Below are positions 2,067 to 13,656 of a stretch of 59,955 bases of DNA, one piece after another. The DNA comes from Candidatus Micrarchaeota archaeon (lineage in GTDB: Archaea > Micrarchaeota > Micrarchaeia > Anstonellales > Bilamarchaeaceae). Both the position numbers and the translations under genes were made by a program. The notes under the pieces are model-generated. The model was not told the origin of the DNA. It made no database searches and saw only the letters and a list, made by a program, of their open reading frames with translations. Every line of letters begins with the position of its first letter. The stretch's first letter is position 1. The stretch is taken from assembly GCA_038046765.1 (NCBI GenBank), contig JBBSVN010000016.1, forward strand, positions 1 to 59,955, given 5' to 3'.

Positions 2067-4637
2067 TTAAGGATTATTTCCAGCTGCGTTACCGGAACCA
2101 CTTCCGCCAGAACCACCCGTTCCCGTTGGCCTTGGTGCGGGCGGTAATTTGCTAGCTTTTTGAATAAGTGTTGAATCCAAACACGCGGAGTTTGAACATT
2201 TATCAATTAAACTTCTGTATCTTTTTAGTACATCAAAGCCGTAGTCCTCTTTTTCTGGGGTGTTAGGTGCAATACAATCACTATAATATTTAATAAAATC
2301 TTGAATTCCACCTACACCACAAATACCAATATTCCATTTATCGCTTTTTAGTACCCAGTTACCGTTACCATCTTGTTGACAGTAGTTTGTGTTTTGGGTA
2401 CTTGCGCAATTATCTTTTTGATCTTTAAATTCTTGAACGTAACTAAGAACATCACTAATATCTCCATAATACCTGTGTAATCCAAAGTAAACTGCATAAA
2501 TTCTTTGCTCTTCTGGGTTGCTTGCAAGACTAGGATTTCGGTCTAAATCTAATGTCTTTCCTAGTTTTATATTCGCTTCCAATAACTTAGAACCAAAGCA
2601 AATATTTTGTGAAGAATTAAATGGATTAAACGTTTGTCCAACTGGTGTGCATTCATTTGCCCAACTCGCTAGTTCATTCGCAAGCGGTGTTTGGTATCCG
2701 TATGGATTGTATATAAGTTGCATTAAACCATATGCGCACATTTTATCAGTTTGTGAATTCCCTTGTCGCCCTTTGATTTGTAATACTTCCTCTATGCTCA
2801 TACTCCCATCAGCTGCTGCGATACAATAATTTGTTTGGTACTCTTTGATTTGTGTAACATCTGTTGCTAAACCTGTGTTTATTGGGTTTATTGAGTTAGT
2901 GTTGCATGTTTTTTTTATGCGTTCAATTCTGCTTGTAGCGCAAGGGTCAAAAGCACTTTCATGTGATATTATTGCTCGAACCAGCATCGGATCATTACTA
3001 CTTCCTTCAACTTCTGGATAAGCTGTACATGCGCTTGCAATGTTTGGTGCATTAAATTCAGATGGGTTTTTGATGCCACTTTGCAATGCCCATATATAAT
3101 TAGTAGCAGTTTGCCCAGGTAATCCATTTCTGGAGTCTACAGTACAAGATGCACACGCTAGTGCAAAATCTTTTGGCTTAAACGAGTCTTTAAGTTCTGG
3201 TGAGCCAGCGTAATTCTCGTTATACTTCTTTGTAAACCAGCTTCCAATTTCAGTTTCCCAACAGACTGCCCTGTCTTCAGATTGTATTATATTCATTCTT
3301 GTCATTGCGGGGTTACTTTCTAAATCATTAACATAACTTGTGCACCAGTCAAAAAATGCGTGCGTTCTAAGATTGTTTAATCCGATTTGGCAGTTTTTAC
3401 AATTAAGCGGATTATAAGAAGTATTTGAAAATGAATATGGTGCTGCTCCAATTACCCCGCTACTTGCTAAATCTTCAAGACTAGAAAAGAACGCAACGTA
3501 TGGGTTTGTTATTTCCTGTAATGATTTCGTTGTCGAATCATCTATAATTTGTTGATTCCAGAAACATCCTCCAGCAGTCGGGTTACTGCTTGTAGCGTCT
3601 TCAGGCTCAAATAGCATGTAAGGAATTATACTTTGTTTTTTGTATTTAAACCAAATTTGTTGTGCAAAACTAGATGCGTCACCAAATATTGCTGATGGTT
3701 TGCACCTTCCCATATATGTCTTACTGTTTATTCCAAAAGCTACTAAATCGGTCGCGTCTTTGGTTGCCTGATCTGAGAATATTTCATCGACGATTGTTAA
3801 ATCTGTTTCGCCATTTGGACCTGGTTTTGTGCTATCATATTTCATTTGGGTTCCAAGAGCGATTAAACAATTTGGACAAATCGCTTTCATTTGTTTAATC
3901 TGACTTTGTATGTCGCTTACTGCGTTTGGTGCAACTGTTTTATCTAATTCGATTTCAGTAACAATTATCGCTGGTCCAGAATCTTTTAGTGAATCCGCGA
4001 TTGCAATTGCCCGAGTATTGTCAATCTTTTTACTCGCACTATATAAAATATATACTGGGGTAATTTTTCTATCTAGACAAGAAGATGCCACGCTTGCATC
4101 TGGCATCGGATAAGAATCCGCGTAATTATCTGCTGGGTCACCAGTTAGCCATTTTACAGCCATAGTCATTCTATTTTCACAATATGGATTTGCTAAATTA
4201 AGTTCACCTAAGCTAGGTCCGATTCCTATCATAAACTGTCTTGGGGTTTCTTTGTTCGCTATAAGTTGACTGAAAAAAGCATCGTAAGTTGTCTTCTGCG
4301 GATCGTATTGCCTTTCAACACAATTGCTTGTTTTTAAACCAGAATCAAATGGGCATCTTAACCAATTCTTTGGATCTGGATCTCCACCTGTTGGCCAAAA
4401 GTTACAAAGTGGGTTTACCTTGTCTTTGCATACTATTACTGTACAAGCCGGAACGTTTGATGGAACGTAATCCTTGAATGTATCAATTGCCTGGCCTTTA
4501 GTATATGCTCCGTTTGGACCAAGGTAGCTATTTGTATACGCTCTATTAAATGAATTTAATTGGCCGCTGCAACCAAAGAGTAAAATTACTGCTAAAAAGG
4601 AAAATAGGATAAGTGATCTGTTTAACGAAATTTTCAT
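2067..4637 (-). CDS. Large Cys-rich putative lipoprotein with C-terminal lytic transglycosylase (SLT)-like domain
   Basis: Signal peptide with lipobox LLFGC; motifs LVRAIISHES, AYGLMQL, NPFNSSQNICFG, HRYYG. Confidence 0.7.
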   Translation of the reverse strand: MKISLNRSLILFSFLAVILLFGCSGQLNSFNRAYTNSYLGPNGAYTKGQAIDTFKDYVPSNVPACTVIVCKDKVNPLCNFWPTGGDPDPKNWLRCPFDSGLKTSNCVERQYDPQKTTYDAFFSQLIANKETPRQFMIGIGPSLGELNLANPYCENRMTMAVKWLTGDPADNYADSYPMPDASVASSCLDRKITPVYILYSASKKIDNTRAIAIADSLKDSGPAIIVTEIELDKTVAPNAVSDIQSQIKQMKAICPNCLIALGTQMKYDSTKPGPNGETDLTIVDEIFSDQATKDATDLVAFGINSKTYMGRCKPSAIFGDASSFAQQIWFKYKKQSIIPYMLFEPEDATSSNPTAGGCFWNQQIIDDSTTKSLQEITNPYVAFFSSLEDLASSGVIGAAPYSFSNTSYNPLNCKNCQIGLNNLRTHAFFDWCTSYVNDLESNPAMTRMNIIQSEDRAVCWETEIGSWFTKKYNENYAGSPELKDSFKPKDFALACASCTVDSRNGLPGQTATNYIWALQSGIKNPSEFNAPNIASACTAYPEVEGSSNDPMLVRAIISHESAFDPCATSRIERIKKTCNTNSINPINTGLATDVTQIKEYQTNYCIAAADGSMSIEEVLQIKGRQGNSQTDKMCAYGLMQLIYNPYGYQTPLANELASWANECTPVGQTFNPFNSSQNICFGSKLLEANIKLGKTLDLDRNPSLASNPEEQRIYAVYFGLHRYYGDISDVLSYVQEFKDQKDNCASTQNTNYCQQDGNGNWVLKSDKWNIGICGVGGIQDFIKYYSDCIAPNTPEKEDYGFDVLKRYRSLIDKCSNSACLDSTLIQKASKLPPAPRPTGTGGSGGSGSGNAAGNNP

Positions 4638-5992: not shown

Positions 5993-6064
5993 TAAACTAT
6001 TAAAAAACCATTTACGTATATTTATTTTTCTAGTTAAATTTATTTATAACTAGTTTATACTAAT

Positions 6065-6258
6065 GCAGGGATGACAGAGCCCGGTCAAATGTGTAGCCCT
6101 TAGGAGGCTATGGCTTAGTGCCTGCGCAAGTTCAATCCCATTACTTTTGACTTTTGTCCATCTTGTGGCAAAAGTAAAGGGTTTGGTCAAAAGCCTTTAG
6201 GCCAATCTTCAAAACGCTAAACGCGTAACTGAAGACTGAACAAATCCTGCTCCCTGCA
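6065..6258 (+). tRNA. tRNA-Leu(TAG) with ~108-nt insertion (intron) in the T-loop
   Basis: Acceptor GCAGGGA/TCCCTGC+A, D-stem ACA/TGT, anticodon stem TAGCC/GGCTA with TAG at 6101-6103, long variable arm; GTTCAA...ATCC split by 6136-6243. Confidence 0.85.
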
Positions 6259-12011: not shown

Positions 12012-13049
12012 CTAAATTAACTTCTTTATTGTTTCAACAAACTCATCAATATCCGCCTTAGTCGTCTGGAATGTACACATCCATCTTACTTCATTGATTT
12101 GTTGATTCCAAACATAAAATAAATATTCCTTTTGTAGTTTCAATATTAATTCTCTAGGAACTATTGCGAATACTGCGTTTGCTTCTACTTTTTGAGTTAT
12201 AATTATCTGCGGAATTTCACCTCTAATCCTCTTCTCTAAATATTTTGCCATTGTATTTGCATTCTTGGCATTTAGAAGCCATAAATTATTCGTAAGTAGC
12301 GTTTCAAATTGCACAGATATAAATCTCATCTTAGAATGTAATTGCATTGCCTGTTTTCTTATAAATCCAAAGTCTTCTTCAAGTTCTTTTCTAAAAAATA
12401 CTATTGATTCACCAAACATCATTCCATTTTTAGTTCCACCAAAAGATAATACATCAACACCTAAATCAGCGCTCATTTGCTTTAGGTTTAAACCTAATGT
12501 TGCAGTCGCATTTGCAAATCTTGCACCATCCACATGTAAAAACATATTATTTTTATGCGCTAAATCTGCAATCTGTTTTATTTCTTGCTGCGTGTAAACT
12601 GTTCCCACTTCGGTTGCTTGAGTTATTGATATAACCTTAGGTTGACTGTGGTGCACATCTCCAAATCCGTGCAAATGTTTTATAATTTCCTCTGGTGTTA
12701 ATTTTCCTTCCTTGGACGCAGGTATCGTTACTAATTTACATCCTGCAAATTTTTCTGTTCCTCCGCATTCATCAACGTTTAAGTGGGATGTTTCGCCACA
12801 TATTATAGAATTAAATGGTTTAGTCATTGCTGCAATAGACAAAATATTTGCCGCAGTTCCATTGTATACCAAATAAGCTTCACTCGCTTTACCAAATACT
12901 TCTTTAAATTTCAAAAGTGTTCTTTGCGTGTATGGGTCGTCTCCGTAAGAAAACATCCCTCCTTCATTTGCGCTTTTCATAGCTTCAAATATTTTAGGAT
13001 GAACTCCTACACTGTTGTCACTAGCAAAACATCTGTTAACTCGTTTCAT
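12012..13049 (-). CDS. ltaE: Low-specificity L-threonine aldolase (PLP)
   Basis: FASDN, YGDD, GTAAN, LHVDGARFANA, SFGGTKNG. Confidence 0.9.
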   Translation of the reverse strand: MKRVNRCFASDNSVGVHPKIFEAMKSANEGGMFSYGDDPYTQRTLLKFKEVFGKASEAYLVYNGTAANILSIAAMTKPFNSIICGETSHLNVDECGGTEKFAGCKLVTIPASKEGKLTPEEIIKHLHGFGDVHHSQPKVISITQATEVGTVYTQQEIKQIADLAHKNNMFLHVDGARFANATATLGLNLKQMSADLGVDVLSFGGTKNGMMFGESIVFFRKELEEDFGFIRKQAMQLHSKMRFISVQFETLLTNNLWLLNAKNANTMAKYLEKRIRGEIPQIIITQKVEANAVFAIVPRELILKLQKEYLFYVWNQQINEVRWMCTFQTTKADIDEFVETIKKLI

Positions 13050-13125
13050 ATTTTCTAAAATAAGTAAAAAACTAAATAAAAAGGTTCGTTTAATAAAAAA
13101 CTAGAAAAAATATAAAATAAAAAGT

Positions 13126-13656
13126 TTAATCCTTGACTCTTTGTTGGCCTAGACCGATTCTTCCTCTACCTAGTCCACGTGCTTTTCTTCCAGAAGAAGT
13201 TAATCCTCTAAACGCTCTTCCGGTTCTAGTTAAAGCTGGTAATTTTAAAAGTGTCGGGTCCCCCATTATTACTTCAAAAAATTTGTAGTTTCCGTTTGAA
13301 CCTACCCAATAAGAATTAAGTACTTCCAAGTTTTTGTATTCTCTGTTTACTCTTTGTTCAGCTATTGTCTGATGGGACAATTGAGTTTGGACTAATTGGT
13401 AATTGTGCCTCGATTTTCTTCCACCCATCGGGTGTAGTCTCTTTCTTCTACCTTTTCCAATTCTTACTCTTATTATTACATATCCATTTTTTGCTTTGTA
13501 ACCAAGAGTCCTTGCTCTTGCAATGTTCGATGGTTTTTCTACTCTTGTGATTGCTTCATCTTTCGACCAGTCTACTATTTTTCGTTTGTACTCTGCTGGT
13601 CTGTCCTTATACTGTTGTTGTATCGTCTTTTTTATATAATCATAAGCATTTGCCAT
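13126..13656 (-). CDS. rpl15e: 50S ribosomal protein L15e
   Basis: ARTLGYKAK, NLEVLNSYWVG, GRAFRGLTSSGRK. Confidence 0.97.
   Translation of the reverse strand: MANAYDYIKKTIQQQYKDRPAEYKRKIVDWSKDEAITRVEKPSNIARARTLGYKAKNGYVIIRVRIGKGRRKRLHPMGGRKSRHNYQLVQTQLSHQTIAEQRVNREYKNLEVLNSYWVGSNGNYKFFEVIMGDPTLLKLPALTRTGRAFRGLTSSGRKARGLGRGRIGLGQQRVKD

Follow-up and report, generated by a model that had tools for sequence, protein, structure and literature searches.

The window analyzed in this study, a stretch of 59,955 nucleotides, corresponds to contig C16 of a 1.5-Mb Micrarchaeota genome with a completeness of 89.7%. Candidatus Micrarchaeota are the closest named relatives by L15e protein, for which 5 of 6 loci are archaeal DPANN records and the best identity is 64%. 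The window carries a tRNA-Leu(TAG) gene at 6065-6258 on the + strand, placed by Pfam matches between an Mre11-like gene and an XPD-like helicase gene. Elsewhere in the window, a secreted protein of 856 aa is encoded at 2067-4637 on the - strand; its SLT transglycosylase-like match is weak (E 5e-4, below the cut-off). The features of the tRNA gene are as follows:

6043..6059, + strand: TATA-like TTTATA motifs 5' of the gene, seen by eye
6065..6135, + strand: 5' exon, tRNA positions 1-58, with the anticodon TAG at 6101-6103 and A52 at 6129
6130..6133, + strand: GTTC, the exon strand of the central splice helix; all 4 bases form Watson-Crick pairs with 6238-6241
6136..6243, + strand: insert of 108 nt, predicted to be a single intron at 58/59 of the relaxed bulge-helix type
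6137..6181, + strand: element core, the long hairpin S1 with a U4:A4 run, beginning at intron nucleotide 2
6182..6201, + strand: element linker and tail, TCAAAAG CCTTTAGG, a copy drifted from the consensus CCCTGAGG
6208..6242, + strand: 3' arm of units with a 7-nt period, which matches the corresponding arm of the tRNA-Ser(CGA) intron (C5:85393) at 33 of 35 positions
6238..6241, + strand: GAAC, the intron strand of the same helix; next to it comes the 3' bulge AAA, with the junction after the second A of the bulge
6244..6258, + strand: 3' exon, positions 59-73, whose first 10 nt are those of the Ser(CGA) gene

At default settings, the gene was missed by both ARAGORN and Rfam. The Rfam scan of the window gave no match reaching the gathering score; at the gene it returned a tRNA match to 6065-6126 of 24 bits, below that score, together with a chance miRNA match. 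After removal of 6136-6243, ARAGORN with a lowered threshold folded the remaining 86 nt into the cloverleaf of a tRNA-Leu(tag) with one T-stem mismatch, A52.C62, which is the A-C mismatch that a sequence-only reading of this DNA had expected of a single-intron product. The acceptor, D, anticodon and variable arms are intact. The T-loop insertion of about 108 nt described in the same reading also held, in sequence as well as in coordinates. Four DNA runs contained no intron-free allele of tRNA-Leu(TAG), and the sole joint seen belongs to the Leu(TAA) paralogue. Source contigs of run X1 span the gene with no listed differences; X1 is possibly the source of the assembly, so this agreement is not independent.

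The insert was predicted to fold better than its shuffles (z -3.55, with 1 of 200 shuffles equally good; z -3.21 with the flanks included). All pairs of the three hairpins proposed earlier (6137-6181, 6183-6205 and 6206-6235) are legal, and the fold constrained to them, at -61.6, lies 2.3 kcal/mol above the minimum of -63.9. An associated proposal, a duplication that allows alternative or kissing pairing, stood in its first half: the 7-nt repeat ACTTTTG is present and lets hairpin 1 shift in register, with the second copy taken in the minimum-energy fold; alternatively, the second CAAAAG at 6188-6193 can take part in a nested re-pairing, at a cost of about 7 kcal/mol more. A loop-loop kiss, on the other hand, is unneeded.

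Intron placement and splicing machinery

Four equivalent placements of the insert lead to the same spliced product, and only 6136-6243 has a central helix with 4/4 Watson-Crick pairs, which bears out the earlier placement of a single intron at 58/59 with the helix GTTC/GAAC and the bulge listed above. At its flanks, the exon-side helix h consists of one pair (A52-U60), a 2x2 loop and two more pairs, and the intron-side helix h' is absent; the splice motif is among the weakest of its family. In the predicted ensemble of the whole precursor the GTTC/GAAC helix has a pairing probability of about 0.41, and 4-bp helices are frequent by chance, with 187 placements in the region when G-U pairs are allowed. 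Nested introns were also considered and rejected, as many chance 4-bp helices were found and none had convincing flanks.

The host EndA, a protein of about 407 aa encoded on C4, matches the epsilon2 EndA of ARMAN-2 (4FZ2) over residues 19-407, that is, over the whole length (E 2e-129). Residues aligned to Y160, K161, Y236, H251 and K282, whose roles are described in PMC12397907, are unchanged, and the ASL and the catalytic residues read as conserved in the alignment. The ARMAN-2 enzyme cleaves an hBH intron at 59/60 in vitro (PMC3239211). An RtcB ligase is encoded in this genome as well. Because an ARMAN-type EndA and RtcB are present and no other UAG gene was found, we consider it likely that the insert is removed as a single intron by the epsilon2 EndA and RtcB. 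Position 58/59 and the matching EndA also agree with the earlier suggestion of a non-canonical intron of the ARMAN kind. In addition to the three-unit EndA, a second, short protein (a frame of 175 aa) with the tRNA-intron endonuclease catalytic domain is encoded at C10:76880-77122 (-).

Alternatively, the gene could be a pseudogene, the intact tRNA-Leu(UAG) residing in the unassembled part of the genome. The weak splice motif, the T-stem mismatch and the completeness of 89.7% would be in keeping with this, but the four arms outside the T-arm are intact, five Leu isoacceptors were found with one gene each, and interrupted tRNA genes are the majority here, with 8 intact ones found in 1.5 Mb. The sequence-only reading had held that an intact tRNA-Leu(TAG) elsewhere, together with the lack of a spliced product, would make this a pseudogene; a second UAG gene was not found in this genome. 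CTA accounts for 5602 codons, 15.7% of the Leu codons in ORFs of at least 200 aa. Overall, we regard a pseudogene as very unlikely.

The A-C mismatch had been the ground for a further model, with two introns around a 4-nt micro-exon, GGTT, and a mature tRNA with G52. This model can hardly be right: its product would have a perfect T-stem, the same as in intron-free orthologues, but the G52 product is reachable by two routes only, each of which requires an intron 6129-6179 with 1/4 central pairs in either splicing order; GGTT is part of the element's own linker; and the Leu(TAA) paralogue has the same GCAAG/CCTGC stem with A52.C62 and a different intron of 50 nt. The Met tRNA gene of this genome has a T-stem mismatch too. 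Among 21 Leu(TAG) genes the mismatch is unique to this one, and comparison with the paralogue suggests that A52.C62 is likely a tolerated lineage mutation common to two Leu genes.

The element, its sites and its relatives

The first ~65 nt of the insert are one copy of an element for which our model R1 scores 80.8 bits at 6134-6205. Hairpin S1 showed both-sided changes at 9 of its 13 pairs among 23 aligned copies, with 94.9% of the cells paired; this pairing was reached in 0/500 shuffles and was well over slid controls, and it is inflated by related copies. A second pairing joins the tail to the loop on its 3' side: 85 distinct cores had 3.66 of 6 Watson-Crick pairs on average, vs 3.08 in shuffles and 3.22 in within-subtype shuffles (0/2000 each), and the pairing was 76% in register vs at most 59% when slid. 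These values lend moderate support to a candidate H-type pseudoknot between loop and tail, given a descriptor that itself demanded part of the tail. In the Leu(TAG) copy the pseudoknot has drifted to 4/8 Watson-Crick pairs. The loop measures 16-17 nt in 75 of 88 cores. Furthermore, the length of the A-run in the tail tends to track that of the U-run in the stem (rho 0.67 in 65 copies), three A's accompanying three U's in 8/14 copies and four A's accompanying four U's in 58/66; packing of an A-rich strand on the stem would fit this correlation. A third pairing was no better across copies than in shuffles (4.89 vs 4.83), and an alternative fold of the element's 5' arm with the intron's 3' end, seen by eye in several D-arm copies, was not above shuffles over all copies. 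Rfam yielded no family matching the element. At several loci (L004, L019, L050, L053, L157, L166 and L170) other small palindromes are nested in the linker (25-77 nt), with the tail kept.

The element was present in 25 of 43 family genomes, at 0 to 23 copies per genome, vs 2 of 77 other genomes of the order, and a phylum-wide model search gave 12/25 vs 0/115 genomes with the element. It persists over at least 10 genera, and the searched genomes of several genera had no match (g3 0/4, g13 0/5). The genome studied here has five strong copies, all of them in T-loop introns of different isotypes, and the tRNA-Leu(TAG) gene itself is an ordinary member of this element-bearing family. Of five weak matches, two fall in introns (Glu, T-loop; Pro, anticodon), one is intergenic, one lies at a further site and one is an antisense self-match. 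A degenerate copy with nested palindromes was also seen at C7:73556-73672, between two opposite-strand genes. An exact-pattern search found 20 metagenome stretches and none in viral contigs.

For a census of sites, 89 model matches in 63 loci were taken from the best-scoring genomes, and 66 of them, most tandem neighbours being left out, were inspected by eye. By this inspection 39 of the 66 copies lie within tRNA genes (T-loop, anticodon loop or D-arm, in over 10 isotypes), 18 next to a tRNA end or a duplicated piece of tRNA, 2 within a 23S rRNA gene, 2 behind 5S rRNA and 5 elsewhere. Stable-RNA genes thus contain or adjoin 61/66 inspected loci, about five of the 61 (at least 5) being antisense. 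An HMM check of the site classes had low sensitivity (21/102) and was too insensitive for multi-intron tRNAs. The element is not confined to splice-competent tRNA sites, as copies are also found in arrays, downstream of tRNA and 5S ends and within the 23S rRNA gene. A T-loop motif lies at most 14 nt upstream of 30 of 86 distinct cores. Of 13 hand-picked stranded copies, 6 lie between direct repeats of 14-20 bp, which in one example are 20 bp from the 5' end of a tRNA, and 3 more have repeats of 9-10 bp. Several individual loci deserve description. One 23S rRNA gene (L100, G084:C13:5700-7800) has two element-containing insertions, one with head-to-head copies, which are likely rRNA introns. In genome G097 (L073, L118-L121), a repeated trailer of 150-330 nt with tandem element copies at its end follows four tRNA genes and the 5S rRNA gene. 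Neighbours assigned by eye to RNase P RNA and C/D sRNA (L059, L020, L051, L156) are below the Rfam gathering scores.

Among 32 T-loop introns with the element, 20 lie at 59/60 and 12 at 58/59. The exon-side helix was found in 28/32, the intron-side helix in 6/32 and a hairpin start at intron base 1-2 in 26/32; a perfect central helix in 26/32 is a partly circular figure, since the 3' junction was chosen partly by helix score. Element-bearing T-loop introns are thus of the hBH type and supply a helix of their own immediately downstream of the 5' bulge. For 24 copies outside T-loops, a splice-motif scan without constraints accepted too many solutions to be useful.

The insert is a patchwork that resembles other introns of this genome. 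An alignment to the Arg(TCG) intron covers the length of the insert, at 78% over 112 columns, and the final 35 nt of the insert are 94% identical to those of the Ser(CGA) intron. Counting the first 10 exon bases, the tract common to Leu(TAG) and Ser(CGA) extends to about 46 nt and crosses the 3' junction; one T-A pair of the Ser(CGA) 3' arm is a C-G pair in the Leu(TAG) insert. In Ser(CGA), the 3' arm and its own 5' arm form a 5/5 intron-side helix at 58/59, and the same arm is partnerless in Leu(TAG). In total, 16 tRNA genes with T-loop inserts of 35-172 nt were examined in this genome, and for 10 of the 16 inserts a segment in common with another isotype scored higher than any of 3600 shuffled pairs. 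A pattern search, which misses genes with anticodon- or variable-arm introns, recovered 21 Leu(TAG) orthologues in 21 of 99 family genomes: 13 are without a T-loop insert, 8 have inserts of 33-157 nt, and 3 of these have the element. Seven orthologous Leu(TAG) introns all score better at 59/60. The alignment suggests gene conversion of Leu(TAG) from Ser(CGA), and the 46-nt tract across the 3' junction would explain why the intron lies at 58/59 here.

Other intron families were noticed in the course of these comparisons. A second family with 7-nt-period repeats (GAAACTG-like arms and their complements) occurs in tRNA genes of this genome, for example at C5:108469-108620, C4:157693-157919 and C8:12805-12961; relatives have such repeats at sites other than tRNA genes as well (L013, L028). 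A reduced form related to the element, with a U-run/A-run hairpin, a linker and CAAAA and no pseudoknot tail, is common in other introns (L084, L087, L116, L117, L124), including the Leu(TAA) and Ser introns of this genome.

Routes of spread and rival explanations

In our analysis, tRNA-Leu(UAG) is split at 58/59 by one insert, which EndA and RtcB likely remove as a single intron. The first two thirds of this insert are one copy of a structured element that occurs family-wide and is likely selfish, spreading from one stable-RNA gene to another; we assign this reading a probability of about 0.72. The element is best read as a splice-ready selfish mobile intron module, a variant of Thermoproteales tRNA-intron transposition. 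Its hairpin would substitute for the usual intron-side helix, and the element would be ready for splicing at any site where four exon bases can pair with the 3' end of the intron. With a relaxed EndA in the same cell, insertion of such a splice-ready element would be nearly harmless or neutral. Whole introns or pieces of them may then be swapped between tRNA genes via recombination in common T-arm sequence.

First entry could follow an RNA route, in which the excised intron is ligated to a broken or trimmed RNA end and copied back into DNA, or a DNA route. The former is favoured by the sense orientation, which fits it best, and by 5' ends at RNA breaks; the latter is favoured by antisense copies and flanking duplications. 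The antisense copies linked to stable RNAs (at least 5) and some antisense intergenic copies are left unexplained by the RNA route. Tentatively, and as a scheme that we hold to be rather doubtful in its entirety, a protein-free pseudoknotted RNA of ~65 nt might be spread by the splicing cycle: EndA would free it, RtcB would join it to stable-RNA ends, and host reverse transcriptase and recombination would rewrite it into a gene, which would make it an archaeal SINE-like "intron seed".

Our search for a mobiliser was negative at several levels. Neither TnpB nor a Y1 transposase was found in this genome. RT genes and Y1 genes were not enriched with the element, each being present in 8/25 element-bearing genomes vs 5/18 without it, and in the copy-rich genus g7 neither RT nor Y1 was found in 5/5 genomes. 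Six Y1 loci contained no element copy, and no element lay near the two split RT genes of this genome. These RT genes (PF00078, DGR type by look) lie on C4 near 12400-13300 (-) and 70900-71900 (-) (L151, L152), and in both of them the same (GA)n run divides the gene into two frames. In relatives, 9 of 13 RT matches also start at profile position 61-70, with an open frame of 230-247 aa; the split genes may represent a conserved programmed frameshift or phase switch.

First, the element may be a DNA-level non-autonomous mobile hairpin, REP- or MITE-like, at highly transcribed loci, surviving in tRNA genes only through EndA removal; this differs from the best reading in the entry route alone. REP, MITE and IS200/IS605 end hairpins are short, dispersed and imperfect, with tandem arrays and flanking duplications, and the element is like them in all these respects. 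The direct repeats of 14-20 bp at 6/13 hand-picked copies and of 9-10 bp at 3 more, the antisense and intergenic copies and the other small palindromes nested inside the element all argue in this direction. Unlike such hairpins, however, the element has no terminal inverted repeats or partner transposase that we could find, and no tie to Y1 transposase, and it shows a strong sense bias with the 5' end fixed to the splice site. Its would-be cleavage tetramer varies among TCAA, CCAA and GCAA, and the direct repeats at the 13 hand-picked copies measure 6-20 bp. We therefore consider entry of this kind unlikely. An IS200/IS605 end, judged by the omega-RNA features given in PMC12558985, was also tried and rejected, no partner Y1/TnpB being found in the genome.

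Second, a host-useful small RNA, such as a guide, a processing signal or a stability element, could lodge in any intron as intronic snoRNAs do. Conservation of the loop length, covariation in the hairpin, the pseudoknot (3.66 vs 3.22 pairs), persistence over at least 10 genera and the near-exclusive tie to stable RNAs are what such a function would leave. Against this, copy number runs from 0 to 23 and genera g3 and g13 had no match in the searched genomes, tandem arrays and stranded copies between duplicated tRNA fragments resemble by-products of movement, and the pseudoknot of the Leu(TAG) copy has decayed. The element has no Rfam family and no box C/D layout: as a box C/D guide intron the insert was rejected, as box C is missing from both the linear and the circular form, two CTGA lie 7 nt from each other and guide spacing of 10-12 nt is lacking. 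An archaeal tRNA-Trp intron with a nested box C/D guide RNA is known (PMC4090602), and the present intron is likewise long and structured but differs in having no box C at its 5' end and no one-locus conservation. The earlier suggestion that the intron could be a functional RNA was borne out in part: structure is conserved, though this conservation runs across copies at unrelated sites and not across Leu(TAG) orthologues, and this points to a mobile element instead of a host function. Nor is the insert a unique RNA, as its first ~65 nt recur as the family element. Overall, a host-useful RNA seems quite improbable to us.

Third, the element could be a small ribozyme that cleaves itself at the 5' end and in this way both releases tRNA 3' ends, in the manner of theta ribozymes, and produces the 5' cut of the intron; this is most improbable. 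Self-cleaving ribozymes and EndA share the same leaving chemistry, copies start a few bases from tRNA or 5S 3' ends or at 5' splice sites, and the element has a predicted pseudoknot; yet its first paired base is variable (C, A or G) and is set back from the splice site by one base, which is what the bulge requires, the structure is one hairpin and one pseudoknot with no third pairing above shuffles, and there is no Rfam ribozyme match. Theta (HDV-like) ribozymes occur at phage tRNA 3' ends (PMC10879173), and the element is like them in being a small pseudoknotted RNA next to tRNA 3' ends. Unlike them, it has no fixed G1 and no nested double pseudoknot, one pseudoknot being supported, its copies lie mostly inside tRNA genes, and viral contigs are without an exact-pattern copy.

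Place among known introns and meaning

The splice-ready selfish intron module preferred here has its nearest parallels in two archaeal systems. In ARMAN-2 (Ca. Micrarchaeum acidiphilum), the epsilon2 EndA cuts T-loop tRNA introns with relaxed hBH motifs, and more than half of the tRNA genes are interrupted (PMC3239211). The phylum, the enzyme type, the T-loop sites, the relaxed hBH motifs and the interruption of more than half of the tRNA genes are all common to this genome, whereas the exon-side helix here is weaker, the intron is long, and a structured element is shared, of which ARMAN-2 has none as described in that source. Archaeal tRNA introns range from 11 to 129 nt overall, with medians mostly of 12-25 nt (PMC4090602). 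Transposition of tRNA introns was reported in Thermoproteales (Fujishima et al., 2010), as summarised in PMC4090602 and bioRxiv 10.64898/2026.10.13.758758. Its criterion, similar introns across isotypes of one genome, describes what we found, for similar introns sit at different isotypes and positions here too. A discrete covarying module of ~65 nt common to several genera, to which variable 3' parts are added, sets the present family apart from Thermoproteales, as does the occurrence of the element outside tRNA genes (23S rRNA gene, 5S and tRNA trailers, tandem arrays). Cross-isotype families make up 28% of Thermoproteales and 1.5% of Asgard introns (bioRxiv 10.64898/2026.10.13.758758), figures that follow a stricter whole-length rule and are not directly comparable with our 10/16. 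Intron gain via integration of a mobile element is an existing model (PMC3293823). In the main texts of the mostly open-access literature that we searched, no description of this element was found; lists of Micrarchaeota introns possibly lie in supplementary files.

The element family accounts for the failure of standard scans to detect most of the tRNA genes in these genomes, as illustrated by the 8 intact genes found in 1.5 Mb. Furthermore, the origin of new archaeal tRNA-gene introns was stated to be open in a 2014 review (PMC4090602) and again in a 2026 Asgard census, which reports no general route of intron entry (bioRxiv 10.64898/2026.10.13.758758). The present family supplies a defined, recognisable unit at many stages, including four kinds of tRNA site, stranded copies, arrays and an rRNA gene. 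Because the unit is caught at so many stages, the question of intron arrival can be put to the test with a single small RNA, a single EndA and a single ligase. If true, the "intron seed" reading would answer directly, and in a form open to testing, the question of how archaea acquire non-canonical introns.
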